Shown here: piece by piece, positions 2,688 through 17,164 of the stretch
Layout: the number at the start of each line of letters is the position of its first letter
Numbering within the stretch: position 1 is the stretch's first letter
Virus record (IMG/VR): IMGVR_UViG_2698536369_000020
Source of the DNA: a virus
Taxonomy: Duplodnaviria > Heunggongvirae > Uroviricota > Caudoviricetes
Strand: one strand, 5' to 3'
DNA: 17,285 bases
Made by a program: the position numbers and the translations under genes
The notes under the pieces: model-generated
Told to the model about the DNA's origin: nothing
Databases searched by the model: none
Seen by the model: only the letters and a program-made list of their open reading frames with translations

Positions 2688-3428
2688 CTAATCATTTCCC
2701 TTACGAATATATGGGCCAAAAGCCCAAGAATCATAATAAGGGTGATGGACTAGTTTTTCATTAAATCGAACACTATAAGTTAATTTTTTTATATTTTTAC
2801 GTACAGCATTAATACTGGGCAAAGAGGAAAGATAATCTATAAACTTATCGATAGTGATTTCCCCTTCGCAACACTCAAACCCATCAATGATATTTTTCGC
2901 CATTTTTCCATTTTCATTTTTTTGATATATCACTCCAGGTATTCGTTGAAAAAAACTAGATAATGCATATTTGTCCGCTACATATGTATCATCCACATGA
3001 TATTTCCCACCGAGCATAGTTGTAGTAACAATAAGCTTATACACACCTTTGGGTTGCCATGTTGATGGTAGTTCGAATTCTTTAATGATCACATCAAGAT
3101 GATTAAGATAATGTTCAGAAATTCGATTTATTTGTTGAAAATAAGAACGCATAAATTTATTATTATGATCATGTATTAATGAGCTATCTCCAACGATGTT
3201 ACACACTTGCTGATAGTACTTACCATAATATATTGGTTGACCATTTGATTTTAGTTCTGTAAAAATCAAACAATCATCCAGGAGAATCACGCAATCGCAC
3301 TGATAATTAGCATAAACATCAATTGGAGGAGCTTTAATCCCCGCATCACGAACTTGTTTTATAAATTGTTGCTCATGAAATCGCCCTTTACTTGCTTGAG
3401 AAATTTTTTTGGAACCAAATAATGACAT
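2688..3428 (-). CDS. Hypothetical protein with NERD / PD-(D/E)xK-like nuclease signature, 246 aa (distal gene of two-gene operon)
   Basis: N-terminal region GRFHEQQ...VYANYQCDCVILLDDCLIFTELKSNGQPIYYG fits the NERD-type layout (G..xE, then acidic residue, hydrophobic strand, E-x-K). Its ATG overlaps the stop of the upstream gene (TAATG at 3426-3430), indicating translational coupling. Strongly AT-rich. Confidence 0.55.
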   Translation of the reverse strand: MSLFGSKKISQASKGRFHEQQFIKQVRDAGIKAPPIDVYANYQCDCVILLDDCLIFTELKSNGQPIYYGKYYQQVCNIVGDSSLIHDHNNKFMRSYFQQINRISEHYLNHLDVIIKEFELPSTWQPKGVYKLIVTTTMLGGKYHVDDTYVADKYALSSFFQRIPGVIYQKNENGKMAKNIIDGFECCEGEITIDKFIDYLSSLPSINAVRKNIKKLTYSVRFNEKLVHHPYYDSWAFGPYIRKGND

Positions 3429-4726
3429 TAGACTGAGCTATTTGCTATTAATGCAGGCATTAAGCATAAACCGTCCATACAGGGAATAAATGGGCAATCA
3501 TTAAGATCATGTGATTTTGAATTGAAGGTAAAATAATCTATCAGTTTTTTTGCTGCATCTGCTGCAATCCCCTTACGTTGAAAGAATGATAACCAACTCT
3601 CACGGCTTTTTATGATCAGCCAGCGATCCAACTGTAGGGGTATAGGTTTTGTCGATGAAAATCTTTTGCTCATTTCTTCTTTAGATAACTCGACTAAACA
3701 TTGATAAGCGTGCACCCAATTAAATAATGATATATTCCCATATTCTTCATGAAGGTCATCAGGAGACATATTTTCCAACTCGCTTAGATGAAATGAGCTA
3801 AAAACGCCATCAGAATTTAAGTAAGATGGCATATGATCCTTTACCCAACTATTTAGATGAAAATGTTTGTTACTAAATTCATGAACTTCGCTATATAGAT
3901 GTGACGCTCTCATCATTAGTCTATTTCTTGCAATCTCATAATCTCGGTATAAACAAAAACTATCAACCTCAAGAGAGTAAATGTTATTATCCAATTTTGT
4001 AAATACTGCACTACTTAGTCTGAAAAAGTCTCTTACTCTGCTTAATGAGTCAAAAACATTCCACTCATTAAGGTACCCTCCCATTGAAAGCAAGGTTTGT
4101 TTATTCACACAAGAAGTTAGTTTCAATGGCCCATGAGTCCGTAAATAAGAAAATATTCTTCCGGTGTAATTGGCTACCTCATCAAATGCCCTATCGATAA
4201 CTCGAAAATATTCGATATCAGGTTCAGCATGAATATTAATATTTTCAGAAACGATAAATAATGGAAAAATCCTCTTCATTTTTTTAGGATCATTGACCAC
4301 AACCAAGGATGATAATGATGATAAAAACATCTCACAAAACATGATGAGATTAAGTATTAATGCATGTGATTTTTTTGTGTTTTTACGCCAAATACCAGCA
4401 CATTTTGTAGCCGCAAAAAAAGAATTATTGATATCATGCATAATTTTACATTGACTCTCGAACTCAGAGATTAGTTCAATGTTATCAGGAAATGAGTTTA
4501 CTAGCTCATTAATACATTTTTTGAATGTATTGTTATACTCAACTTCAGTCTGAACTGAAAATCTATTATAATAGATGGAAGATATTCTCAGCACATCCAA
4601 GGCGATATCTATACTAATATCATCTCTTTTTATGTACTCACAAAAAAAAGAACAAAACTGTTTCGGGTCGTTAGCAAGATTACTGATTCTAGTGGTATCA
4701 TAAACTTTTTCCATTTTTCCATACAT
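3428..4726 (-). CDS. Hypothetical protein, 432 aa, no recognisable family (proximal gene of two-gene operon)
   Basis: Long uninterrupted ORF in strongly AT-rich DNA; no Walker A, HNH, PD-(D/E)xK or other motif that I can recognise; one ~23-residue hydrophobic stretch (HALILNLIMFCEMFLSSLSSLVVV). A second in-frame ATG four codons downstream has the AGGA box at a more plausible spacing (~11 nt). Confidence 0.55.
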   Translation of the reverse strand: MYGKMEKVYDTTRISNLANDPKQFCSFFCEYIKRDDISIDIALDVLRISSIYYNRFSVQTEVEYNNTFKKCINELVNSFPDNIELISEFESQCKIMHDINNSFFAATKCAGIWRKNTKKSHALILNLIMFCEMFLSSLSSLVVVNDPKKMKRIFPLFIVSENINIHAEPDIEYFRVIDRAFDEVANYTGRIFSYLRTHGPLKLTSCVNKQTLLSMGGYLNEWNVFDSLSRVRDFFRLSSAVFTKLDNNIYSLEVDSFCLYRDYEIARNRLMMRASHLYSEVHEFSNKHFHLNSWVKDHMPSYLNSDGVFSSFHLSELENMSPDDLHEEYGNISLFNWVHAYQCLVELSKEEMSKRFSSTKPIPLQLDRWLIIKSRESWLSFFQRKGIAADAAKKLIDYFTFNSKSHDLNDCPFIPCMDGLCLMPALIANSSV

Positions 4727-5403: not shown

Positions 5404-5422
5404 TGGTGCGAAGGCCGGACTC
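5404..5422. repeat. attR: 19-bp direct repeat of the leuX 3' end (P4-type att core)
   Basis: TGGTGCGAAGGCCGGACTC at 5404-5422 versus TGGTGCCGAAGGCCGGACTC at 17080-17099 inside the tRNA 3' end (one C missing). The two copies bracket the whole P4-like gene set. Confidence 0.7.
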
Positions 5423-5476
5423 AAATATCAAAATAAGTCAATGATAAAAAACAAATAATAAAAAACAAAAATGAAA

Positions 5477-5497
5477 TATGCCCCCTTTTGTGCCCCC
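5477..5497. repeat. Two TGCCCCC motifs near attR, candidate integrase arm-type binding sites
   Basis: ATATGCCCCC ttttg TGCCCCCA; the same heptamer recurs three times next to attL/int start (16918-16964). Confidence 0.3.
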
Positions 5498-5567
5498 ATT
5501 GTTTTTCTGACCAATCTATTTTCAACCCATCAACAAATCGGAAAGTTAACTAATTTTTAATCAGTGA

Positions 5568-5594
5568 GTTTGGATCCGTAGCTCGGATCCAAAC
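5568..5594. other. Perfect hairpin: 11-bp stem, 5-nt loop
   Basis: GTTTGGATCCG tagct CGGATCCAAAC; located between attR and the crr-like repeats; no adjacent U-run typical of an intrinsic terminator. Confidence 0.4.
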
Positions 5595-5620
5595 CAGTGC
5601 ATCTTTTACCCACATAAAAA

Positions 5621-5915
5621 ATTTTTTTTCGGAAGAACTGTTCACACTGTTCACCCTTTGATTTTCTCCTTTTATTTCAGAGTAATAGATGGTGAATAAT
5701 GGGTGAAGGGTGAACATTCGATTCTTCACCTCCGGCATTCTGCCGATGTGACTTGTGCAGGGGATTAATCCTCCGCACTGAAATCACACAGGGAGAAAAA
5801 AGTTTTTTTTGATTTGATTGTTCACACTGTTCACCTTTCGTTTTTCTCTTTTAATTTCAGTGTGATAACGGGTGAATATACGGTGAAGGGTGAACAGTGG
5901 ATTGTTCACCTGCGG
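5621..5915. repeat. crr-like region: two ~120-bp direct repeats, each carrying TGTTCACC-type iterons
   Basis: Unit 1 ~5621-5745 and unit 2 ~5797-5915 both read A6-T8, TGTTCACACTGTTCACC, ~50 nt, GGTGAAnnnnGGTGAAGGGTGAACA, TTCACC. Lies immediately downstream of the alpha gene. Matches my recollection that P4 crr is two 120-bp direct repeats with type-I iterons bound by alpha protein. Confidence 0.6.
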
Positions 5916-5969
5916 GGAATTCAGGGATAAAAAAAGACCGGCAGATGCCGGTCAGGTGGGTCATGAGGG

Positions 5970-8303
5970 TCAGGTTGTTGCAGGGTCGTCACATTTTGGC
6001 AGCCAGTCGCCGTAGCTTTCCTCTTTCAGCGTCAGGTTGGTCTGTATCCCCTGTTTGGTATGGCGCTTCTCGTAATTCAGTCCGTATTCCTTCAGCATCA
6101 CCGGCAGCCCCAGCCCGAACATTTTCAGACTGAGTACATTCCGGTAGCCGTTTGCCTCCATGTAGGCCAGATAGGCGTGATAGAGGTATTTACGGTAATT
6201 ACGCGGGATGATACTGGCGTTCCCCATATACATGCCGCTGGTCTGCGGCAGGGTTTCCAGATAGCCGATAAAATCAAACGTCGGGTCGGCATCCCGTTTG
6301 ATGTTCAGTGCCTCGTCTGAGTTCTGCTGGGACTGAAGCAGTGACCGGGCGAGCATCGGGTCGCTGAACTTCTGCATCAGGTGACGCACGATGACCGCCA
6401 GCTCGCGGGTGATTTTGTCCTTAAGCTGCGGGTCGCGCTCCTGCGGGGCTATCTGTTCCGGGAAGTGAATAATCACCCGCCGGCGTGACACGCCGCCGCT
6501 GCGGTCGGTGAAGCGCATCGGGTTATTGTTGACGGCCAGAATCACCGCCGGGATATGCGTGGAGTACGCATCCCGGTATTTCGGGTCAACGGACACCGCA
6601 TCGCCGCCGGTGATGGCCTTGAGTCCGGCTCCGTCGCCGCTCCATTTTTCCTGGTCCGGCAGGCGTATCAGTGAGAAGCCAGTTAACGCGGCACGTTCAC
6701 GCGGGGATTCCAGCGTCTCGATGGTGGCCGACGTGGCGTTATCCTCCCCGGCCAGCAGGGTGGCTATTTCGGCCATGATACTTTTGCCGCTGCCGCCGGG
6801 ACCGGTCACCTCCAGAAAGAGCTGCCAGTCGTAGCGGTTTGCCAGCACCATAAACAGTGCGGCCAGAATCACGTCGCGTTTTTCCGCACGACCACCGGCG
6901 GCACGGTCAAGCCAGCGCCAGAACGCGGGAGCGTGGGTTTCCAGCATTTCCCCTTCCACCGGCGGGGTGAAATCCACATCGCACAGGGTGCGCATCCAGT
7001 GTGACGGACTGTGCGGGTGGAACGAGCCGTTCTGCGTGTCGAGCACGCCGTTACGAAAGCCAATCAGGCGGCGGGAGGGGGCTTCCTGCTGCGGAATAAT
7101 CAGCTTCAGGGTGTCCACCACGGAGGCCACCTTCCCGGAGGAGAACGGCGCGCGCAGCCGCTGAAACAGCCCGGCCACATCCCGGGCAAAGTCCTGTGGT
7201 GGCAGCACCTTCCAGACACCATTTTCATAACGGGACAGAAGCTGGCCGTTGGCATCGACCGCGAGCGCCTCGCCGTAATGCTCATAGATACGCATGGCCT
7301 TTTCGCTGGTACTCATGGCGGAAAACTCCGCTTCACTCATGGTGTCGAACGGGCTTTCAGCCGGTGGCCGGATGGCATCGTAAATGGCCTTACGGGTGGC
7401 CTCCCCGCCGTACTGCGTGAAGGCATCATTCCAGTCACCGAAGACCGGTGGCAGGGCAACAACACCTTCACACGCATCTGCGGCTGCGGCGGCTTTTTTC
7501 TGGCCGTCACCGCTGAGGTCACGGTCAGCAGCAAGGACAATCTGACAGGCCGGATGCTTCTGCCGGGCAAGGCTGGCCAGAGAAAGGAGGTTCACGGAAG
7601 AAAGCGCCACCATCACCGTTTCACCGGTCAGGTGATGTACGGTAAGTGCGGTCGCGTATCCCTCCGCTATCCACAGACGTTTTCCGGCCTGATTCTGTCC
7701 TTCAAGGGTGTGACAGGTGCCCCTGACCTGTCCGCCTTTCAGGGTGCGCTTACGGCCGTCAGCACTGATTAACTGAAGGTTAACCAGTTCGCCGCTGTCG
7801 TCATACAGTGGCACCACAAGGTCACCGGCGCGCCAGCTCACGCCACCGGCTCTGTGTGTGCCGGTCAGCATCCGGCATTCCCGGCCGGGAAAGCCCTTGC
7901 GGGTCAGGTAGGCGTTACCGGTTCCGGGACGGGTTTTTGCCATCAGGGTTTGTGCCAGTGCGGCGGCGTTCTTCCGGGCGGCTTCTGTTTCAGCACCGGC
8001 GGCGGCCGTCACTGTCGGGTCAGCCGGGGGCAGGCTGCCGGTCACGGCAGCCACCTTTGCGGCCGCGTCGGACGGAGAGACACCAAACACCTTTTCAACC
8101 AGTTTCAGGCCGTCACCGGCACCACACTGATTGCAGTACCAGGTGCCGCGCCCCTCCCTGTCATCAAAACGGAAGCGGTCACTCCCGCCACAGACCGGAC
8201 AGGGCTGATGACGGTTTTTCAGCACCTGAATCCCCAGCGCCGGGAGAATACGCGGCCAGTGGCCGAGCGCATGGCTGACGGTGGCGGTTACGTTCATTTT
8301 CAT
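5970..8303 (-). CDS. P4 alpha-like primase-helicase, 777 aa
   Basis: N-terminal zinc-binding primase motif CPVCGGSDRFRFDD...GTWYCNQCGAGDG, central TOPRIM-like region, C-terminal Walker A GPGGSGKS; length equals that recalled for P4 alpha. Confidence 0.85.
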   Translation of the reverse strand: MKMNVTATVSHALGHWPRILPALGIQVLKNRHQPCPVCGGSDRFRFDDREGRGTWYCNQCGAGDGLKLVEKVFGVSPSDAAAKVAAVTGSLPPADPTVTAAAGAETEAARKNAAALAQTLMAKTRPGTGNAYLTRKGFPGRECRMLTGTHRAGGVSWRAGDLVVPLYDDSGELVNLQLISADGRKRTLKGGQVRGTCHTLEGQNQAGKRLWIAEGYATALTVHHLTGETVMVALSSVNLLSLASLARQKHPACQIVLAADRDLSGDGQKKAAAAADACEGVVALPPVFGDWNDAFTQYGGEATRKAIYDAIRPPAESPFDTMSEAEFSAMSTSEKAMRIYEHYGEALAVDANGQLLSRYENGVWKVLPPQDFARDVAGLFQRLRAPFSSGKVASVVDTLKLIIPQQEAPSRRLIGFRNGVLDTQNGSFHPHSPSHWMRTLCDVDFTPPVEGEMLETHAPAFWRWLDRAAGGRAEKRDVILAALFMVLANRYDWQLFLEVTGPGGSGKSIMAEIATLLAGEDNATSATIETLESPRERAALTGFSLIRLPDQEKWSGDGAGLKAITGGDAVSVDPKYRDAYSTHIPAVILAVNNNPMRFTDRSGGVSRRRVIIHFPEQIAPQERDPQLKDKITRELAVIVRHLMQKFSDPMLARSLLQSQQNSDEALNIKRDADPTFDFIGYLETLPQTSGMYMGNASIIPRNYRKYLYHAYLAYMEANGYRNVLSLKMFGLGLPVMLKEYGLNYEKRHTKQGIQTNLTLKEESYGDWLPKCDDPATT

Positions 8304-8317
8304 GGTGTTGTTCTCCT

Positions 8318-8638
8318 TCAGTGCAGTACCGGCGCTTTTATGTGACGGGCACAGAGTTCATCCATCACAACCAGCCCGAGAAAGGACAGCGACGGCGCGG
8401 CCTTCAGGGGGCCGGATTCCATTAAATCTTCCAGCAGGGCACAGGCTATCTGACGCCCTTTTTCCTCACCGTGCTGGCGCAGATAAAAGCCCTCCAGCTC
8501 AGCGGCGATGGCCGCCTCCAGTGATTCAAGGGTGAGATGCGGGTAGCGGTGCTGACGTTCGCACACGGTCAGCCAGGCACAGGCGACAGCGCGACGGTAA
8601 AGGGCAGCGCGTAAGACGGGCGGTAAGGGTGTTTTCAT
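8318..8638 (-). CDS. P4 orf106-like small protein, 106 aa
   Basis: ORF directly upstream of alpha in the same operon orientation; size and position match the small ORF between orf151 and alpha in P4-like elements. Function unknown. Confidence 0.45.
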
Positions 8639-8773
8639 TTGTTTTCCTCCCTGTGACAGATGACTGCATTCCGTGCCGGTTGTATTAACTGATAAGGCAT
8701 ATCTGCGTCTCCTGAAGACGTGCGTATCCCTGCGCGAATACGCACATTTAATTTTTCGGGTGTCGTTTTTTAA

Positions 8774-9229
8774 TTACAGATAATTGCGGTAACTGTTATC
8801 CGGGGTGATTTCCGGGTCAGGCTCCGTGCGGGGAATTTCCCGCCATTCCCGCGCCACCGGTGCCGCCCGGCTGGCCGGAACAGTGTCCTGCGGGTAAATA
8901 TCCAGATATTTCTCCCGCCATTTCTGTAATTCCGGGTCTCCGGCCATTTCTTTCAGTACCGCATGCCGGTTTACGGGGCTGCGTTTAAACAGGTCAGGAC
9001 GGTCACAGGTAAATTCCCGCAGAAAACGCCCCAGCGGGATGTCTGTGGTGCGCCCGTCTGCGAGGATACGCACAAGGATACTGAATTTACGGCGGTACGG
9101 GTTCCAGACAATGTCCGGGCAGCGGTACGGCATTTCCCACGGAATACCGTCTTCCAGAATGCCGACCACGGCCACATCGGGAAAACCGGCAGAACGGTAA
9201 ATCTCACCGGGCTGGGGAAAATCAAACAT
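8774..9229 (-). CDS. P4 orf151-like protein, 151 aa
   Basis: Size and position in the leftward operon match P4 orf151; start overlaps the upstream eps-like stop by a few nt. Confidence 0.45.
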   Translation of the reverse strand: MFDFPQPGEIYRSAGFPDVAVVGILEDGIPWEMPYRCPDIVWNPYRRKFSILVRILADGRTTDIPLGRFLREFTCDRPDLFKRSPVNRHAVLKEMAGDPELQKWREKYLDIYPQDTVPASRAAPVAREWREIPRTEPDPEITPDNSYRNYL

Positions 9230-9509
9230 GCGTCTTGTCTCCCCGGTCTTTCTGCTGGGCGAGAAAATCGCGGCACAGGCCTTTGGCTTTCAGCTCATTC
9301 AGCACAAAATCAATATCTTCATTCAGGTAGCTGAAAATATGCGGAATGTAGAGCTGATGCAGGCCGGAGAGTTCACGGTGAATCAAATCACCCCCAACAA
9401 ACTGGGATACGGCGCTGGCGCGGTTGAGCTTATGGTAAGCCTCAATGCTGAGGTGTTCACGGGCGTCATGACGCGCTGAGACGGTCTGAGGGGCTTTTTT
9501 ATTACGCAC
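9222..9509 (-). CDS. eps-like small protein (~95 aa from a GTG start)
   Basis: GTG at 9509-9507 preceded by GGAGG at ~6 nt; begins [20 protein letters not shown]...; the GTG overlaps the stop of the upstream kil-like ORF. The ORF track's 177-aa version runs through the upstream gene and has no ribosome-binding site. Confidence 0.4.
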
Positions 9510-9699
9510 GGGACACCTCCACCACCGGCAGACGGGCAGCAAGGGAGAGCACATAGTCACGGACAAGGGAACGGCGGGCGCTGCGTTCATCACCGGCGAC
9601 GGTGCGAAGCATGCAGATACGGGGATGACGGTCTGCGCGACGGACAGCCGCAAACACAAAGACAAATTCAGGGTGTGAGGGGGTAAGGGTTGTAGCCAT
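9502..9699 (-). CDS. kil-like small protein, 65 aa (first gene after the immunity region)
   Basis: ATG at 9699-9697 with AAGGAGG ~8 nt upstream; [16 protein letters not shown]...; position right after the CI/seq elements matches P4 kil. Assignment is by synteny only. Confidence 0.4.
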
Positions 9700-9710
9700 G
9701 ATGGCAGCCT

Positions 9711-9752
9711 CCTTGAAGTAACAGTTACAGCTACCACTGGAGTTCCTACGCT
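9711..9752 (-). promoter_or_regulatory. seqC-like target element of the P4-type RNA immunity system
   Basis: CCTTGAAGTAAC ... GTTCCTACGC; same two boxes recur at 9933-9958; the candidate CI region between them contains the complementary GTAGGAA; this copy abuts the kil ribosome-binding site. Confidence 0.4.
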
Positions 9753-9754
9753 CA

Positions 9755-9845
9755 TGGGTGGTAGCCCGGACGGGGGTAGGAATACCGGCCTTCAAGGAAA
9801 CCGGCCAGCCCGAAGGCTGCCCCGCCCGGACCACCATTATCTGAC
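9755..9845 (-). ncRNA. CI-RNA-like structured immunity RNA (boundaries approximate)
   Basis: GC-rich segment with terminal complementarity (GGTGGTAGCCCGG ... CCGGACCACC) and an internal GGTAGGAATACC box complementary to the flanking seq elements; lies between the two seq copies, as P4 cI lies between seqA and seqC. Confidence 0.35.
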
Positions 9846-9932
9846 AGAGGCTACGGTTTAAAAACCACAGCCAGAAAAACAGGTGTGCCGAAGCAACGAC
9901 GTAAAAAAAGACGCATGGCGCGTCATATGTCG

Positions 9933-9958
9933 CCTTGAAGTAACTCGGGTTCCTACGC
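9933..9958 (-). promoter_or_regulatory. seqA-like target element (upstream copy)
   Basis: CCTTGAAGTAAC tcgg GTTCCTACGC, direct repeat of the element at 9711-9752. Confidence 0.4.
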
Positions 9959-10052
9959 CCGGCTGCCGATTTTGCGGCAGCGGAAAAACTATATCCGCAA
10001 ATGCCGGAAAAAGGCAAGCCAGAAAAAGGGAGTTTTTGCAGAACAGGCATCA

Positions 10053-10319
10053 TCATGCGTCGTACCCCCGTTTGCGTCCGGCAATGCGTCCGGCCATCCA
10101 TGCGGTGACTTCAGAGTGCAGCCAGGCCACATTTTTACCGCCAAGACTCACCTGCGGCGGAAATTCCCCCTTACGGATGAGTTCATAGATGGTCGAGCGT
10201 GACAGGCCGCACAGGTGCATCACTTCCGGCAGACGTAAAAAACGCTCCTGCGTGATGTCCGGCAGCGGCATCAGTGGCGTAACAGGGGCGGGAGACGGGG
10301 AAGAAAAAACAGCTTGCAT
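10053..10319 (-). CDS. Vis / AlpA-family phage regulatory DNA-binding protein, 88 aa
   Basis: HTH region [51 protein letters not shown] is characteristic of AlpA/Vis; 88 aa, transcribed divergently from sid, as P4 vis (orf88) is. Confidence 0.7.
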
Positions 10320-10596
10320 CGGGCTACCTCGTTAATGTCCATACAGCACCGGATAAGTCCGTCCGGCTTCGGGTAGCGCTTTATTTTGTGAATATTTTCA
10401 GCAGACGCAACAGGGGGAATTTGTTCCGGCAACCTTACAATGGCTGTGTGTTTTTTATCCATCTGGACTGGAAGGGTCTCAAAGGGTTCTGAAGGAACTG
10501 TAATTTTTTATAGTGAAATGCAAATTGTTTTTCCTTATTTATTTCAGTGAATTAATAAAAATAAACAGTAATAAACAGCATAAAAAGCCCATCAAC

Positions 10597-10704
10597 GGGT
10601 GAACAGTGGTGAACAGACGGTGAACAGTCATTACTGCGATTGTTCACCCTTTAACTTACTGTATTACTTATCTTTTTTCTTATGGTGAACAGAGGTGAAC
10701 AGTA
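10597..10704. repeat. ori-like cluster of six TGTTCACC-type iterons
   Basis: GGTGAACAG t GGTGAACAG ac GGTGAACAG (three direct copies at ~11-bp spacing), one inverted copy (TGTTCACCC at ~10641), then GGTGAACAG a GGTGAACAG; between vis and sid. Confidence 0.6.
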
Positions 10705-10870
10705 AAATATAAAAAAACAAACAGTAAGCCGGTTTTTCCTGCGACCTTTTCCTGGCTTGCCGGTCTGAGGATGAGTCTCCTGTGTCAGGGCTGGCACATC
10801 TGCAATGCGTCGTGTTGTTGTCCGGTGTACGTCACAATTTTCTCAACCTGAAGTGACGAGGAGCCGGAAA

Positions 10871-11605
10871 ATGTCTGACAACACCATCCCTGAATATCTG
10901 CAACCCGCGCTGGCACAACTGGAAAAGGCCAGAGCCGCCCATCTTGAGAACGCCCGCCTGATGGATGAGACCGTCACGGCCATTGAACGGGCAGAGCAGG
11001 AAAAAAATGCGCTGACGCAGGCCGACGGAAACGATGCTGACGACTGGCGCACGGCCTTTCGTGCAGCCGGTGGTGTCCTGAGCGACGAGCTGAAACAGCG
11101 CCACATTGAGCGCGTGGCACGCCGGGAGCTGGTACAGGAATATGACAATCTGGCCGTGGTGCTGAATTTTGAACGCGAACGCCTGAAAGGGGCGTGTGAC
11201 AGCACGGCCACCGCCTACCGGAAGGCACATCATCACCTTCTGAGTCTGTATGCAGAGCATGAGCTGGAACACGCCCTGAATGAAACGTGTGAGGCGCTTG
11301 TCCGGGCAATGCATCTGAGCATTCTGGTACAGGAAAATCCGCTCGCCAACACCACCGGGCATCAGGGCTACGTCGCACCCGATAAAGCTGTCATGCAGCA
11401 GGTGAAATCATCGCTGGAACAGAAAATAAAACAGATGCAAATCAGCCTCACCGGCGAGCCGGTTCTCCGGCTGACCGGACTGTCAGCGGCAACACTCCCG
11501 CACATGGATTATGAGGTGGCAGGCACACCGGCACAGCGCAAGGTGTGGCAGGACAAAATAGACCAGCAGGGAGCAGTGCTTAAGGCCAGAGGACTGCTGT
11601 CATGA
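10871..11605 (+). CDS. sid: Sid-like external capsid-size scaffold protein, 244 aa
   Basis: ATG at 10871 preceded by GAGGAG; 244 aa from this start equals the recalled length of P4 Sid; first gene of a sid-delta-psu-sized triplet; coiled-coil-like composition. The ORF track's 266-aa version starts 22 codons upstream without a ribosome-binding site. Confidence 0.6.
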   Translation: MSDNTIPEYLQPALAQLEKARAAHLENARLMDETVTAIERAEQEKNALTQADGNDADDWRTAFRAAGGVLSDELKQRHIERVARRELVQEYDNLAVVLNFERERLKGACDSTATAYRKAHHHLLSLYAEHELEHALNETCEALVRAMHLSILVQENPLANTTGHQGYVAPDKAVMQQVKSSLEQKIKQMQISLTGEPVLRLTGLSAATLPHMDYEVAGTPAQRKVWQDKIDQQGAVLKARGLLS

Positions 11606-12102
11606 TTTACTGCCCGTCGTGTGGACATGTTGCTCACACCCGTCGCGCACATTTCATGGACGATGGCACCAAGATAATGATTGCACAGTGCCGGAATATT
11701 TATTGCTCTGCGACATTTGAAGCGAGTGAAAGCTTTTTCTCTGACTGTAAAGATTCAGGAATGGAATACATTTCAGGCAAACAGAGATACCGCGATTCAC
11801 TGACTTCTGCCTCCGGCAGTATGAAACGCCCGAAAAGAATGCTTGTTACCGGATATTGTTGTCGGAGATGTAAAGGCCTTGCACTGTCAAGAACATCGCG
11901 GCGTCTGTCTCAGGAAGTCACCGAGCGTTTTTATGTGTGCACGGATCCGGGCTGTGGTCTGGTGTTTAAAACGCTTCAGACCATCAACCGCTTCATTGTC
12001 CGCCCGGTCACGCCGGACGAACTGGCAGAAAGCCTGCATGAAAAACAGGAACTGCCGCCAGTACGGTTAAAAACACAATCATATTCGCTGCGTCTGGAAT
12101 GA
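11602..12102 (+). CDS. Delta-like late transcription activator (tandem Ogr-type zinc fingers), 166 aa
   Basis: N-terminal half CPSCGHVAHTRR...CRNIYCSATFEASES mirrors the P2 Ogr zinc-finger signature (CP.C.H.AH.R...C.N..CSATF) and a second, degenerate copy follows (C..C...RTSR...C....C..VF); start overlaps the sid stop (ATGA). Confidence 0.75.
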   Translation: MIYCPSCGHVAHTRRAHFMDDGTKIMIAQCRNIYCSATFEASESFFSDCKDSGMEYISGKQRYRDSLTSASGSMKRPKRMLVTGYCCRRCKGLALSRTSRRLSQEVTERFYVCTDPGCGLVFKTLQTINRFIVRPVTPDELAESLHEKQELPPVRLKTQSYSLRLE

Positions 12103-12175
12103 GGGCTGCCGGTTAACCCCGGCCGTCGCCGCACACCGTATTTTTATTCTTCAGCATGATGAGAAAGAGATAACG

Positions 12176-12748
12176 ATGGAAAGCACAGCCTTACAGCAGG
12201 CCTTTGACACCTGTCAGAATAACAAAGCAGCATGGCTGCAACGCAAAAATGAGCTGGCTGCGGCCGAACAGGAATATCTGCGGCTTCTGTCCGGGGAAGG
12301 CAGAAACGTCAGTCGCCTGGACGAATTACGCAATATTATCGAAGTCAGAAAATGGCAGGTGAATCAGGCCGCCGGTCGTTATATTCGTTCGCATGAAGCC
12401 GTTCAGCACATCAGCATCCGCGACCGGCTGAATGATTTTATGCAGCAGCACGGCACAGCACTGGCGGCGGCACTGGCACCGGAGCTGATGGGATACAGTG
12501 AGCTGACGGCCATTGCCCGAAACTGTGCCATACAGCGTGCCACAGATGCCCTGCGTGAAGCCCTTCTGTCCTGGCTTGCGAAGGGGGAAAAAATTAATTA
12601 TTCCGCACAGGATAGCGACATTTTAACGACCATCGGATTCAGGCCTGACGCGGCTTCGGTGGATGACAGCCGTGAAAAATTCACCCCTGCGCAGAACATG
12701 ATTTTTTCGCGTAAAAGTGCGCAACTGGCATCACATCAGTCTGTGTAA
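12176..12748 (+). CDS. psu: Psu-like polarity-suppression / capsid-decoration protein, 190 aa
   Basis: 190-aa ORF immediately after delta, followed by a terminator and cos site; size and position match P4 Psu. Confidence 0.6.
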   Translation: MESTALQQAFDTCQNNKAAWLQRKNELAAAEQEYLRLLSGEGRNVSRLDELRNIIEVRKWQVNQAAGRYIRSHEAVQHISIRDRLNDFMQQHGTALAAALAPELMGYSELTAIARNCAIQRATDALREALLSWLAKGEKINYSAQDSDILTTIGFRPDAASVDDSREKFTPAQNMIFSRKSAQLASHQSV

Positions 12749-12784
12749 AACTCCCCGAAAATCCGTCCGATTTTACTGAAAAAA

Positions 12785-12822
12785 GCCATGCATCGATAAG
12801 GTGCATGGCTTTGCATGCGTTT
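12785..12822 (+). terminator. Putative intrinsic terminator of the sid-delta-psu operon
   Basis: Hairpin GCCATGCA tcgataagg TGCATGGC followed by TTTGCATGCGTTTT, ~37 nt after the psu stop. Confidence 0.4.
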
Positions 12823-12912
12823 TCCTGCCTCATTTTCTGCAGACCGCGCCATTCCCGGCGCGGCCTGAGCGTGTCAGTGCAACTGCATTAAAACCGCCCT
12901 GCAAAGCGGGCG

Positions 12913-12931
12913 GGCGAGGCGGGGAAAGCAC
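12913..12931. other. cos site (P2/P4-type 19-nt cohesive end sequence)
   Basis: GGCGAGGCGGGGAAAGCAC matches the cohesive-end sequence I recall for P2/P4; located between psu and the hotspot, as in P4. Confidence 0.55.
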
Positions 12932-13010
12932 TGCGCGCCAGTATCTATTAATTTACATTCATAGAATCCTTGCAAAGCAGATTCTGCTAAGATCCCTGAA
13001 ACTTGAGTTG

Positions 13011-13028
13011 AGGATTAGTGTTAATCCT
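13011..13028. promoter_or_regulatory. Palindrome upstream of the methyltransferase gene, candidate operator
   Basis: AGGATTA gtgt TAATCCT (7-bp arms), ~35 bp upstream of the methyltransferase start; a weaker GCAGA t TCTGC palindrome lies at 12977-12987. Confidence 0.3.
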
Positions 13029-13064
13029 TTACAATATCCTAGTATTTGGCTGCTAAGTATGTAG

Positions 13065-14318
13065 GTGATTATTTTGTCTAGTAAAAAGTTTATTTCGCTA
13101 TTTAGTGGCGCAATGGGGTTAGACTTAGGTCTCGAAGAGGCTGGCTTTGAGCTCGTAGCTTGCGTTGAACAAGATAAGGCAGCTCTAAAAACAATTAAAA
13201 CTAATAAGCCAAATCTTGCTGTATTCGAAGGTAGTATTGTTGACTGCACTGGCTCTGAATTATTAGCACTAGCCGGAGTGAATGATAAAGAAGAAATAGA
13301 TTTAGTTGCTGGCGGTCCACCGTGCCAAGCATTTAGTGTTTTTGGAAATAGGTTAGGGCTAGAAGATGCCAGAGGGCAGCTTATTTTCGAATATGTTCGA
13401 ATGATTAAAGAATTAAACCCAAAAGTTTTCGTAATGGAAAACGTACGCGGTTTATTATCAATGTCTATAGTTCCAGCTTCTAAAAAGAAGGAGCTATCAG
13501 GCACAATCGCAGCATCTGCTTTCGAAAAAGGCTCTCTAATAAAAAGGGTAGCTAACGAATTCAATAAACTAGGTTATCATGTGGATTGCTTTGTAGTTAA
13601 TGCTGCCAACTATGGAGCCCCACAAATTAGGGAGCGTGTTATTTTAATTGGTAATCGCTTCGGAATGATAGCCAATTTCGCCTCCCCTTTATTCAGCAAT
13701 AGAGTAGAAGATAATCTTCCGCCATTCAAAACGCTGGGGGATGTAATTGGCCCAGAGAGCGGTTTTGTTGATAAATATCCAGAAGTCATGAATTTTTCGC
13801 CAAGAAAACTGAAATATCTTTCAATGGTTCCACCTGGCGGAAACTGGAGAAGCATGCCAGAAGAAATGCAAAAAGAATCTATGGGAAAAAGCTGGTATCT
13901 TAAAGGAGGAAGAAGTGCTTACTGGAGGAAACTATCTTTCCAGTTTCCTTCACCCACAGTAGTAACAATGCCAAATCATGCGGGAACAAGTATGTGCCAC
14001 CCAACTGAACTTAGAGCTATTTCTGTTGGTGAAGCTGCCGCGATACAAGAGTTTCCTGATTACTGGAAATTTGAAGGTACAACTACAGAAAAATTCAGAC
14101 AGATAGGTAACGCAGTTCCTGTCCGGTTAGGTAAAGTTGCAGGGGAAGCTGCTATGGAACTTCTTCATCGTATACAAGAAAATAAGGTTGCTGATTTAGT
14201 AACTCCAGATTATATAGAAACCCATATTAGACCGCATATTAGAACCAGATCTTTCTTTAAAAATGGTCAAGCATATAGTGGAGATGTTTCTTACTACGAC
14301 CTTGAAGAAGAAGTTTAG
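13065..14318 (+). CDS. DNA (cytosine-5)-methyltransferase, type II modification enzyme
   Basis: Canonical C5-MTase motifs in order: motif I LFSGAMGLDLG, motif IV GGPPCQAFS, motif VI ENVRGL, motif X QIGNAVPV, with a variable target-recognition region between. Low-GC. Exact start (GTG 13065 or a nearby codon) is uncertain. Confidence 0.85.
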   Translation: MIILSSKKFISLFSGAMGLDLGLEEAGFELVACVEQDKAALKTIKTNKPNLAVFEGSIVDCTGSELLALAGVNDKEEIDLVAGGPPCQAFSVFGNRLGLEDARGQLIFEYVRMIKELNPKVFVMENVRGLLSMSIVPASKKKELSGTIAASAFEKGSLIKRVANEFNKLGYHVDCFVVNAANYGAPQIRERVILIGNRFGMIANFASPLFSNRVEDNLPPFKTLGDVIGPESGFVDKYPEVMNFSPRKLKYLSMVPPGGNWRSMPEEMQKESMGKSWYLKGGRSAYWRKLSFQFPSPTVVTMPNHAGTSMCHPTELRAISVGEAAAIQEFPDYWKFEGTTTEKFRQIGNAVPVRLGKVAGEAAMELLHRIQENKVADLVTPDYIETHIRPHIRTRSFFKNGQAYSGDVSYYDLEEEV

Positions 14319-14328
14319 AATTAGTCAT

Positions 14329-14357
14329 AAAAAAAACTGGCCCTTAGGCCAGTTTTT
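14329..14357. terminator. Bidirectional intrinsic terminator between the convergent methyltransferase and endonuclease genes
   Basis: AAAAAAACTGGCC ctta GGCCAGTTTTTT: GC stem flanked by an A-run on one side and a T-run on the other, so it can terminate both converging transcripts. Confidence 0.6.
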
Positions 14358-15175
14358 TATTCATTAATCATTTCAAGTAATTTGTGCCATTGAGCTGTGC
14401 CATCAGCATTTAGAACTTGCTCATTGTACTTCTTTGCAACATGTTCTTTGAATTTTTCAATAAGATCTTTATTTTTTTCTTTTATATCTGCTTCTTTTAC
14501 AGCACGTTCTATACCTTCAAGTACCCAATGCTGGGTTTCAGCCTCACCATTGTTAAGCCATGACCAAAATTCTTTACCAGCATATACATGCACTTTGTCA
14601 CGAATATCAATCACATTGTGGTTTGCACCAGTATTGATACCTCGTAAGATTCTATACTTATCAGTTAATCCATGGCTATTTCCATAAAAAACCCCAACCA
14701 CTATATTGTCAGCCACTCCAGGATAATTATTTATGATTTCGTGAAATGCTTTATTTAGTTGGACAGCCATCGTCAATTGAATAGTCCATTTCCCTGCCTT
14801 AAGAGATAAAAGCTCAATTCTACCATCATCCCTTTGTATTACATGATCTATTTCATCAAAGCAAGGGTGTATAAAAGGCTCGTTGGCAGCTCTATAACTT
14901 TTATCTAATTTATATGCACCAAACACTCTAGGAAGTATTTTTTCATCAATCAATTTTCCAAAGCCAGTATCATGCCCAGTCATTAAATGCTTAGCAATTA
15001 TTGCTTCAACTAGTTCATCAAAATCATTAAGGGAATGATAATCAAAAATAAAAGGGGTCATAAACGGATTTATGGACATTGTTTCTGACATTAACTTTGT
15101 TAGTTTACTTTGTCTCTCCAAAATCCACCACGCAGCACACTCCTGCACTTTAAGTATAACTTCTTGCTTATTCAT
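14357..15175 (-). CDS. Putative type II restriction endonuclease, 272 aa
   Basis: Assigned by context: convergent with a C5-MTase, and its start overlaps the stop of an upstream controller-protein gene (classic C-R-M layout). I do not recognise the family from sequence alone. Confidence 0.6.
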   Translation of the reverse strand: MNKQEVILKVQECAAWWILERQSKLTKLMSETMSINPFMTPFIFDYHSLNDFDELVEAIIAKHLMTGHDTGFGKLIDEKILPRVFGAYKLDKSYRAANEPFIHPCFDEIDHVIQRDDGRIELLSLKAGKWTIQLTMAVQLNKAFHEIINNYPGVADNIVVGVFYGNSHGLTDKYRILRGINTGANHNVIDIRDKVHVYAGKEFWSWLNNGEAETQHWVLEGIERAVKEADIKEKNKDLIEKFKEHVAKKYNEQVLNADGTAQWHKLLEMINE

Positions 15176-15473
15176 GACTTATAAATCCATCTGATAAATT
15201 TTTTAATAAAATTAACCGCTGTTTTTTGTCTAGTTTATTAATCAACAAAATAATTTCTGCCAAGTCATCTTCGGGTGTGTAAAAATATGAGACAGGGACA
15301 TTTAATAAATCAGCGATTTTTTTAGTAAGTGAAAAATCGGGCATATGTTTACCTTTCTCATATTGATTCATGCGAGCACTGGCAGAGCATTCATCAATGC
15401 CAACAAGTATTCCCAACTGTTCTTGAGTTAACCCAGCATTCAATCGGGCTTTTTTTAACCTAATTGGAAGCAT
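15168..15473 (-). CDS. Controller (C) protein, XRE-family helix-turn-helix regulator, ~101 aa
   Basis: HTH motif LTQEQLGILVGIDECSASARMNQYEKGKHMPDFSLTKKIADLLNVPVSYFY; start placed at the internal ATG (15473-15471), which has an AGAGGA Shine-Dalgarno ~8 nt upstream; the ORF track's upstream start at 15551 would put the operator palindrome inside the coding region. Confidence 0.65.
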   Translation of the reverse strand: MLPIRLKKARLNAGLTQEQLGILVGIDECSASARMNQYEKGKHMPDFSLTKKIADLLNVPVSYFYTPEDDLAEIILLINKLDKKQRLILLKNLSDGFISHE

Positions 15474-15522
15474 CGAAAATCCTCTTTTTGGAGGTAGGTT
15501 TGCACTTTTTACACTCGAAATT

Positions 15523-15539
15523 ACTAAGGAATACTTAGT
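15523..15539. promoter_or_regulatory. Candidate C-box operator palindrome
   Basis: ACTAAG gaata CTTAGT, ~50 bp upstream of the preferred C-protein start. Confidence 0.35.
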
Positions 15540-15640
15540 TTTTAAAAGCAATGGAATAATTGCCTAAGAAGTTGTTAAGTGAAGGTTAAAAAGACACAAG
15601 CATTGCTGTTGATGAAGGCTAGTTCAAACTAAGCGGAGAC

Positions 15641-16927
15641 TTAATCAAGGCTATTTTTATTAAGTTTATTTGCAAATTCAAAAGCAGAGATATGCTTCTC
15701 TCTGTTGGAATAAAGATAATCTGCCCACCATTGGACCATTAGTCTGCGCTCATCTAAATGCTCAGACGTATGAATATACGCAGCTCGCACATTATTACGT
15801 TCCGAATGGCTCAATTGGCGTTCAATAGCATCATCACTCCATAATCCTGACTCTCCTAACGCACCACGTGCCATTGTCCTAAAACCATGTCCGCAAACTT
15901 CTGTTTTCGTATCATAGCCCATCGCACGCAATGCATTATTAACAGTGTTCTCACTCATAACCTTAGTTGCGTCATGATCCCCAGGGAAAAGCAGCGTCTT
16001 ATCACCACTAATCTGCTTTAACTGCTCCAACAACCCTATCGCTTGCCTACTAAGTGGAACGAGATGCTCTTCCTTCATCTTCATTCCTCTATATGAGTAA
16101 CGTACGCCTTTAATTTCCTCGCGTTTTGCAGGTATACGCCATAGAGATTTATCGAAGTCGAATTCATCCCAGCGAGCGAAACGTAGCTCACTGGAACGAA
16201 CAAATGTTAATAAAGAAAGTTCAACCGCAATTTTCGTCATCATACGACCACGATATGCAGCAAGACGTGCTAAGAACTCAGGAAAACGATGTGATGGTAG
16301 AGCTGGATAGTGCCGCGTTTTAGCTGTCGATAACGCACCAGCCATATCACTTGCAGGATTTGAATCTATATAATCGTTCTGTACGGCATAGCGCATAATA
16401 GCAGTAACACGTTGCTGAAGACGCTGCGCCACATCATGCTTACCACTGGCATCAACTTTTTTTATCGGTGCTAAAAGATGGCTAGTTTTAAGCTGTCGGA
16501 TATCAGACAAGCCAATATAAGGAAAGATATACAGCTCTAGATAGCGAAGAACACGCGCCCGATGATCCTCACTCCAACGTTTGTTGCTGGCGTGCCATTC
16601 ACGAGCAATAGTTTCAAAATTATAAGCACCAGCATTCTCTGCTTGAGCCTCTTTCTGTACTGCTTTTGGATCTATACCTTGCGCCAGCAACTTTTTCGCT
16701 TCATCCCTCCTCTTTCTAGCTTCAGCAAGCGTCACGGTCGGCCAAACACCAAAAGCGAGGCGATCCTCTTTTTTGTCAGAGGGGCGTCGGTATTTCATGC
16801 GCCAGTATTTAGACCCCTTGGCCGAAACCTCGAGATACAAACCGCCGCCATCGGCCATTTTGTAGCTTTTGTCTTTTGGCTTTGCTGTCTCGACTTGTCT
16901 AGCATTGAGCTTCATTTGGGGGCACAT
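15641..16927 (-). CDS. int: P4-type tyrosine integrase (site-specific recombinase)
   Basis: N-terminal KLNARQVETAKPKDKSYKMADGGGLYLEV, typical of P4-family integrases; C-terminal catalytic region with H..R (CGHGFRTMARGAL) and ...RAAYIHTSEH; lies next to the tRNA att site. Start ambiguous (ATG 16927 or ATG 16915, neither with a strong Shine-Dalgarno). Confidence 0.85.
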   Translation of the reverse strand: MCPQMKLNARQVETAKPKDKSYKMADGGGLYLEVSAKGSKYWRMKYRRPSDKKEDRLAFGVWPTVTLAEARKRRDEAKKLLAQGIDPKAVQKEAQAENAGAYNFETIAREWHASNKRWSEDHRARVLRYLELYIFPYIGLSDIRQLKTSHLLAPIKKVDASGKHDVAQRLQQRVTAIMRYAVQNDYIDSNPASDMAGALSTAKTRHYPALPSHRFPEFLARLAAYRGRMMTKIAVELSLLTFVRSSELRFARWDEFDFDKSLWRIPAKREEIKGVRYSYRGMKMKEEHLVPLSRQAIGLLEQLKQISGDKTLLFPGDHDATKVMSENTVNNALRAMGYDTKTEVCGHGFRTMARGALGESGLWSDDAIERQLSHSERNNVRAAYIHTSEHLDERRLMVQWWADYLYSNREKHISAFEFANKLNKNSLD

Positions 16928-16964
16928 TTCTAATCGAAGTTAAGATGCCCCCAATTATGCCCCC
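16918..16964. repeat. Three TGCCCCC heptamers (one inverted, two direct) between int start and attL, candidate Int arm-type sites
   Basis: GGGGGCA (16918-16924), ATGCCCCC (16945-16952), ATGCCCCC (16957-16964); same motif as near attR. Confidence 0.3.
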
Positions 16965-17079
16965 AATGACATCCGGATTTCAACGGACAACCTCGGACGA
17001 TCCAGGATCGTAGAAATCGCTGAAAGTATTGATTTTTAATGGATAATCGGACTTACTCGGATGGACTTGGAAGTAATAA

Positions 17080-17099
17080 TGGTGCCGAAGGCCGGACTC
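17080..17099. repeat. attL core within the 3' end of leuX
   Basis: TGGTGCCGAAGGCCGGACTC, directly repeated (19/20) at 5404-5422. Confidence 0.7.
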
Positions 17100-17164
17100 G
17101 AACCGGCACGTATTTCTACGGTTGATTTTGAATCAACTGCGTCTACCGATTTCGCCACTTCGGC
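17080..17164 (-). tRNA. leuX: tRNA-Leu (anticodon CAA)
   Basis: Reverse complement reads GCCGAAGTGGCGAAATCGGTAGACGCAGTTGATTCAAAATCAACCGTAGAAATACGTGCCGGTTCGAGTCCGGCCTTCGGCACCA: 85 nt, CAA anticodon in the loop TTCAAAA, long variable arm, CCA end encoded. Confidence 0.9.

Follow-up and report, generated by a model that had tools for sequence, protein, structure and literature searches.

The restriction endonuclease EcoO109I is sold commercially, its crystal structure has been solved, and its controller protein has already been studied. The restriction-modification (R-M) system that it belongs to is reportedly that of Escherichia coli H709c, as described by Kita et al. in 1999 and 2002, and the structure of the endonuclease (PDB 1WTD/1WTE) is said to come from Hashimoto et al. 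in 2005. Here we compare these proteins to a putative R-M cassette in a viral record from IMG/VR (IMGVR_UViG_2698536369_000020). The whole stretch of DNA that we analyzed, which we call the window, is 17,285 nucleotides long. Judging from its sequence, a complete P4-like satellite that is integrated at leuX very probably has the EcoO109I type II R-M system, at 12932–15640, as its variable cargo. By sequence identity, the restriction endonuclease (R) is that of EcoO109I and the controller (C) is its controller, and the methyltransferase (M) has the sequence of an intact C5-cytosine methyltransferase.

Neither the system nor its place between psu and int of a P4-like satellite is new. Of the known psu-int systems in P4-like elements that Rousset et al. 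2022 (PMC9122126) name, one is the "type-II RM system EcoO109I (Kita et al., 1999)"; as cited there, EcoO109I in a P4-like element is a previously reported case, which is credited to Kita et al., 1999. The supplementary table of PMC9122126 has P4 loci with an HTH + RE_EcoO109I + DNA_methylase architecture, including the proteins WP_000936844 (C) and WP_001453880 (R). In RefSeq, these two proteins are annotated on DNA that is identical to the C and R genes of our window. An earlier, sequence-only reading of the window had mentioned EcoO109I as reportedly residing in a P4-like prophage at leuX; PMC9122126 likewise places the system in P4-like elements. We found every element that this reading listed, each one at its stated position or close to it.

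Two relatives of EcoO109I are useful for comparison. The first is Csp231I from Citrobacter sp. RFL231. The usual C proteins have a mass of 8–9 kDa, while the class that comprises C.EcoO109I and C.Csp231I is about 11 kDa and has a C-terminal extension (PMC3115060, PMC4824078). C.Csp231I and C.EcoO109I are about 70% identical over their first 80 residues (PMC3115060), and the operator consensus of C.Csp231I and its orthologue C.EcoO109I is CTAAG-N5-CTTAG (PMC6765115, PMC4824078). According to the title of Kita 2002, as cited in PMC4824078 and PMC6765115, C.EcoO109I is needed for the production of R. The second relative is the endonuclease AvaII, which is more distant. EcoO109I recognizes RG^GNCCY, and its residue W130 serves as a wedge for reading the R:Y pairs at the flanks of this site (PMC7337904).

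The endonuclease gene

The endonuclease gene (ecoO109IR) is at 14357–15175 on the minus strand and encodes 272 amino acids. The protein is identical to the "EcoO109IR" chain of PDB 1WTD/1WTE across its full length (272/272 residues to 1WTD_A, E = 1.9e-187), and an exact-sequence look-up led to UniProt entry Q9RPJ3, which is also named "EcoO109IR". It matches the Pfam family RE_EcoO109I (PF14511), and it matches the 272-position REase_II profile from PADLOC from end to end (5.5e-198). The sequence-only reading had suspected EcoO109I, and this identity, together with the exact match of C to UniProt Q9RPJ4, bears it out. That reading had also allowed that the minus-strand protein of 272 amino acids might not be an endonuclease, or that its gene might carry a lesion. 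We found that it is an endonuclease and that its gene is free of lesions.

By identity, R would be a homodimer with the PD-(D/E)XK fold, and its cleavage of RG^GNCCY would produce 5' overhangs of 3 nucleotides. Because R is 100% identical to the characterized enzyme, cleavage at RG^GNCCY is implied for this locus as well. AvaII, which cuts G^GWCC, has the same unusual 3-nucleotide 5' stagger and likewise binds DNA in an A-like form, but its site has only 5 base pairs with W at the center, and it lacks the W130 wedge (PMC7337904). W130 is present in R from the window. Against the EcoO109I system of H709c, we detected no differences in R or C, which are the two proteins that were compared, and the two systems share their genomic setting in a P4-like element, between psu/cos and int.

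RefSeq annotates a shorter form of R. The annotation pipeline (PGAP) starts the protein at Met29, which gives 244 amino acids (WP_001453880; equivalent to 14357–15091 of the window). The same call was made in two carrier loci that we compared (at 15605–16339 and 15607–16341), and in one of them the protein is named "PDDEXK family nuclease". Taken at face value, the 244-residue form in other genomes could suggest that R is truncated, and that the cassette is a decayed remnant, with an orphan methyltransferase and an inactive endonuclease or controller. We rejected a truncation of R: these genomes and the window do not differ in their DNA here, so the shorter form reflects the choice of start codon and not a lesion. 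Also, R in the window is full-length and 100% identical to the crystallized, active enzyme, C is identical to its reference, the operator in front of C is perfect, and the motifs of M are intact. A remnant is therefore most unlikely, and is effectively refuted by R and C, which equal their references from end to end, and by the intact motifs of M. The start of R should be Met1 (272 amino acids) instead of the 244-residue form in RefSeq. The 244-residue call is likely to be a systematic mis-annotation of the start site, which hides the overlap between C and R.

The controller gene and its operator

The open reading frame (ORF) of C, as called mechanically, is at 15168–15551 on the minus strand; it opens at a TTG codon and encodes 127 amino acids. 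If translation starts instead from the ATG at 15473, which has a GAGG ribosome-binding site in front of it, then the protein has 101 amino acids, and RefSeq uses the same start on identical DNA. The real C gene (ecoO109IC) is 15168–15473. An exact-sequence look-up of the 101-residue protein led to UniProt Q9RPJ4 ("Eco0109IREP"), which is the regulator of EcoO109I, so C is identical to the known controller at 101/101 residues. C also matches all 101 positions of the 101-position Control_protein profile from PADLOC (1.4e-69). The Pfam matches of C are to the helix-turn-helix families HTH_19, HTH_3, and HTH_31, as expected for an XRE-type regulator. The HTH_19/HTH_3 match covers residues 31–92 of the 127-residue ORF, or 5–66 of the 101-residue protein, which is the N-terminal two thirds.

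C is directly upstream of R and in the same orientation. The TAA stop codon of C (15170–15168) overlaps the ATG start codon of R (15175–15173) within the sequence ATGAATAA, just as the sequence-only reading had described for an XRE-type controller gene and a 272-residue endonuclease.

Upstream of C, we found a perfect CTAAG-N5-CTTAG palindrome, or C-box, at 15524–15538 (minus strand), 51 nucleotides from the ATG of C. Allowing up to one mismatch, this proximal box is the sole match to the consensus in the window. A second and more degenerate box, TTAAC-N5-CTTAG on the minus strand, with two mismatches, is at 15564–15578, which is 25 nucleotides from the proximal box. The match of the distal box is not significant by itself. 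The spacing of 25 nucleotides equals the 18-nucleotide spacer of Csp231I plus the "additional 7 bp" of EcoO109I (PMC3115060, PMC4824078). The motif matches that of EcoO109I, and the distal box is at the spacing published for it.

The C protein from the window has the features of the C.EcoO109I / C.Csp231I class (Sorokin motif 8): an operator repeat upstream of the gene, a mass of about 11 kDa, and a C-terminal extension. In Csp231I, C is likewise about 11 kDa, with a two-helix extension at its C terminus and CTAAG-N5-CTTAG boxes. The two systems differ in the spacer between the boxes (18 nucleotides in Csp231I versus 25 here) and in the specificity of the enzyme, which in Csp231I is not that of EcoO109I. 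Furthermore, R of Csp231I has its own promoter and is independent of C (PMC4824078), while here R overlaps C and appears to be translationally coupled to it.

The methyltransferase gene and the terminator between M and R

The methyltransferase gene (ecoO109IM) is at 13065–14318 on the plus strand and encodes 417 amino acids, starting from GTG as in RefSeq. As the sequence-only reading had it, this is a C5-cytosine methyltransferase. The protein matches the C-5 cytosine methylase family (PF00145; 7e-65), TIGR00675 (1e-58), and the MTase_II profile from PADLOC (3.5e-105). The conserved motifs are intact: motif I is FSGAMG, motif IV is GPPCQ (residues 84–88), motif VI is ENV (125–127), motif VIII is QIRER (187–191), and motif X is GNAVP (348–352). 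The exact sequence of M is widespread in the Enterobacteriaceae. Because M adjoins exact copies of the R and C proteins of EcoO109I, we infer that it is the published M.EcoO109I.

The DruM and DrmMII profiles from PADLOC also match M (3e-80 and 1e-77), which raises the question of whether M belongs to another defense system, of the Druantia (DruM) or DISARM (DrmMII) type, and is next to the endonuclease by chance. However, DruM and DrmMII are generic models for C5-methyltransferases, and the best match is to MTase_II. From cos to int, the slot measures 2.7 kb, which leaves no room for further Druantia or DISARM genes, and the neighbors of M are the exact R and C of EcoO109I. We rejected the DruM/DrmMII identity of M as generic similarity among C5-methyltransferases, and we consider it extremely improbable that M is a part of any such system.

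We identified a candidate σ70 promoter for M at 13008–13035 (plus strand), about 30 nucleotides upstream of its start codon. The sequence, TTGAGG-16-TACAAT, matches the consensus at 9 of 12 positions, and it might drive the expression of M. In the region as a whole, σ70-like matches are no more common than in shuffled sequences.

M and R are convergent and just 38 nucleotides apart, and a hairpin sits between them. This putative bidirectional intrinsic terminator is at 14331–14358 (both strands), has the form A8-CTGGCC-CTTA-GGCCAG-T6, and overlaps the stop codon of R. It can fold into a hairpin of 12 base pairs on either strand, with predicted energies of -16.8 kcal/mol (plus strand) and -17.5 kcal/mol (minus strand) and z scores of -5.8 and -4.9. 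None of 200 shuffled sequences folded as well. The bidirectional terminator that the sequence-only reading had placed between the converging genes is thus predicted by folding on both strands. The run of A at the M side of the hairpin (14329–14336) has eight As in the window and seven in the two carriers that we compared, and this is the only insertion or deletion within the cassette.

Some observations weigh against our identification of this locus as a functional EcoO109I system. A literature search for "M.EcoO109I" returned nothing, so the identity of M continues to come from its neighbors. The candidate promoter for M, as given by the consensus scan, is weak, and the σ70 consensus scan gave no candidate for a promoter of the C-R operon. 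A simple consensus scanner for terminators did not list the hairpin between M and R, so the terminator call rests on folding. Finally, the literature that we searched yielded no anti-phage test of EcoO109I specifically.

The cassette lies between cos and int of a P4-like satellite

The cassette is 2.7 kb long with a GC content of 37%; it begins right after cos and ends at the stop codon of int. The GC content of 12932–15640 is 0.369, as compared to 0.548 for the P4 core at 5404–12931, and the trough is sharp, which matches the low-GC block that had been noticed between cos/psu and int. The left edge of the variable cargo is marked by the sequence GGCGAGGCGGGGAAAGCAC at 12913–12931 (plus strand), which is the cohesive-end (cos) sequence of P2 and P4. 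This 19-mer occurs exactly once in the window and never in 200 shuffled sequences. P2 is annotated with cos ends of 19 nucleotides. The hotspot is flanked on its left side by psu (12176–12748, plus strand; PF07455, 1.3e-88), in a region that is 97% identical to P4, and on its right side by int (15641–16927, minus strand), which encodes a P4-type tyrosine integrase with the domains Arm-DNA-bind_3, Phage_int_M, and Phage_integrase.

The rest of the element is closely related to P4. When aligned to P4 (NC_001609), the window is 97% identical over 5404–9838 and 9897–12912, and it has 83% nucleotide identity over 15716–17103. These segments carry alpha (the primase-helicase), orf106, orf151, epsilon, the Ash/cI region, orf88, sid, delta, psu, and int. 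The core that is shared with P4 includes alpha, orf106, orf151, epsilon, orf88, sid, delta, psu, and cos, at 97% identity, and int, at 83%, and the element is about 11.68 kb, as compared to 11.62 kb for P4. Homology to P4 begins at 5404, which corresponds to the core of attP at P4 position 4078, and it stops at 12912, which corresponds to the right end of P4 at 11624. In the alignment with NC_001609, there is no homology to P4 over 12913–15715, and homology resumes within the 3' end of int. Where P4 has gop-beta-cII, this element has C-R-M. The sequence-only reading had named gop-beta-cII as the occupants of this interval in P4, and the alignment does put the cassette in that cos-to-int interval.

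Within the core, 9838–9897 does not align with P4 (P4 positions 8504–8608, around the cI/immunity region), and the alignment with the satellite of strain JNE23-001 also breaks there. This may be an immunity-type variable patch of P4-like elements.

The integration target is a tRNA-Leu(CAA) gene, which ARAGORN identified at 17080–17164 on the minus strand. In related genomes, this tRNA gene adjoins ahr, and this is the leuX locus of the E. coli map. Direct repeats of 17 nucleotides are found at 5409–5425 (plus strand), which is the distal att repeat at the other end of the satellite, and at 17086–17102, inside the tRNA gene. The two copies match at 16 of 17 positions and are 11,677 nucleotides apart.

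Distribution of the cassette and exchange of cargo

The cassette is present, at 99% identity or above, in 69 of 5,426 complete E. coli genomes, including many from O157:H7. Compared to two carrier strains, the C-R-M DNA differs by one single-nucleotide polymorphism in M, besides the one A in the A-run of the terminator; the other differences are in the spacer between psu and cos. Similarly, when we compared the P4 backbone of the window to those of the O157:H7 and JNE23-001 carriers, we saw just a few single-nucleotide polymorphisms in the psu-cos spacer.

Many complete E. coli genomes cover 84% of the window but encode something else in the slot, such as a TIR-domain, TPR, nucleotide-binding, or beta-family protein. 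For instance, strain DE17 has the same flanks and the same backbone, but its psu-int interval holds one TIR gene of 2.5 kb, and the locus is 17,270 nucleotides long in DE17, as compared to 17,285 in the window. Judged from these sequences, the exchange of cargo on the same backbone is the behavior of the P4 psu-int hotspot. These other cargoes in E. coli genomes with the same backbone, as well as the systems in PMC9122126, support the earlier statement that P4-like satellites carry variable defense cargo at this position.

General depletion of RGGNCCY sites in E. coli DNA

The window contains no RGGNCCY sites, as compared to 12.5 that are expected from its base composition or 7.1 from an order-3 Markov model. 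The satellite itself has no sites in 11.7 kb. We considered whether the avoidance of these sites might be a signature of the cassette, and compared other DNA to its order-3 Markov expectation. P4, which does not carry the cassette, is equally depleted, with 0 sites in 11.6 kb (5.8 expected). P2 has 1 site in 33.6 kb (10.3 expected), lambda has 3 sites (15.8 expected), and a 50-kb sample of E. coli K-12 has 7 sites (11.9 expected). Also, a satellite from O157 that carries the cassette has an RGGNCCY site in alpha. The sites of strain ETEC6335 are all outside the DNA that it shares with the window, so there was no loss of sites here. Depletion of RGGNCCY is general in E. coli DNA and is strongest in the DNA of temperate phages and satellites; it is not specific to carriers. 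Because the depletion is general, we rejected site avoidance as a feature of this element.

A variant of this idea starts from the counts for P4, the satellite, and P2: EcoO109I in a satellite might act as a helper-compatible weapon, which would restrict competing phages while largely sparing the satellite and its P2 helper, whatever the methylation state of their DNA. If true, P2 and P4 might have so few sites because their lineage co-evolved for a long time with the cargo of the hotspot. We doubt this explanation: sites are also scarcer than expected in lambda and the K-12 sample, and P4, which lacks the cassette, is as depleted as the satellite with it, which argues against specificity.

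How the system would work

We infer the following steps from published work on EcoO109I and its class. M would be expressed constitutively from its own promoter and would methylate the RGGNCCY sites of the host and of the satellite. C would activate the C-R operon by binding to the CTAAG-N5-CTTAG boxes that precede the C gene, and the operon would not be expressed without it. R would be translationally coupled to C through the overlap at ATGAATAA. If the operon depends on C and R is coupled to it, then R should appear only after C accumulates, and M should have time to protect a newly entered genome before R is made. The shared hairpin would end both of the converging transcripts. Once the system is established, incoming DNA from phages or plasmids that has unmethylated RGGNCCY sites would be cleaved. 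In this way, the satellite would shield both its host and itself from competing phages, like the other cargoes of the psu-int hotspot.

Several type II R-M systems cause post-segregational killing, and C proteins act in establishment and in exclusion. Since these roles are established for type II systems, the cassette might mainly be a selfish addiction module: if the satellite were lost, then M would be diluted faster than R, the cell would be killed, and the element would be stabilized at leuX. Our observations are compatible with this role. The satellite, which has att repeats and whose int is intact, is a mobile element that can excise, and the DNA is nearly identical across diverse strains, which is consistent with recent horizontal spread. 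On the other hand, addiction does not exclude defense, and the same slot in sister elements holds many defense systems that are not addictive. The rarity of RGGNCCY in E. coli DNA (as in the K-12 sample) would weaken self-killing but would not abolish it. Although the two roles are inseparable in silico, and addiction is compatible with everything that we saw, we think it somewhat unlikely that addiction is the main role of the cassette. Defense of the host and the satellite by EcoO109I is the role that we favor.

Other putative defense genes near the satellite

The part of the window that lies outside of the satellite opens with nanS (1–981), which encodes a sialate O-acetylesterase (PF03629). 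A second restriction function is encoded just outside of the satellite, at 1136–2065 on the plus strand: a phosphorothioate-DNA-binding HNH restriction endonuclease (NCBIfam NF045808, 2.2e-131; Pfam HNH_2). A fragment at 2110–2572 is 85% identical to the DNA at the junction of brxL and a phospholipase D gene in the BREX island of JNE23-001, and it is a peptidase remnant in the annotation of DE17. The content of 1–981 and 2110–2572 suggests past turnover of the defense island at this locus.

At 2688–4726 on the minus strand, an uncharacterized gene of 678 codons is split by a 10-base-pair deletion near 3431 into ORFs of 432 and 246 amino acids. The gene is intact in ETEC6335 (at 6271–8307 of the stretch that we compared) and in DE17 (2688–4724), and its GC content is about 0.30–0.34. 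We did not find any match for the protein sequence in Pfam, PADLOC, NCBIfam, or PDB. By eye only, we noticed a PD-(D/E)XK-like string, DCVILLDDCLIFTELK, in its C-terminal part. Given its place in the leuX island, beside a type IV restriction enzyme, this gene may be one for defense that has not been described before and that is inactivated here.

Implications

Since the enzyme, the controller, and their residence in a P4-like element were all described previously, the value of this locus as a discovery is small. Its practical use is for annotation, where ecoO109IC, ecoO109IR, and ecoO109IM can serve as names for the three genes. In the host strain, RGGNCCY sites would be expected to carry 5-methylcytosine, and DNA with unmethylated sites would be expected to be restricted, which would be relevant to transformation of and phage work with this strain.

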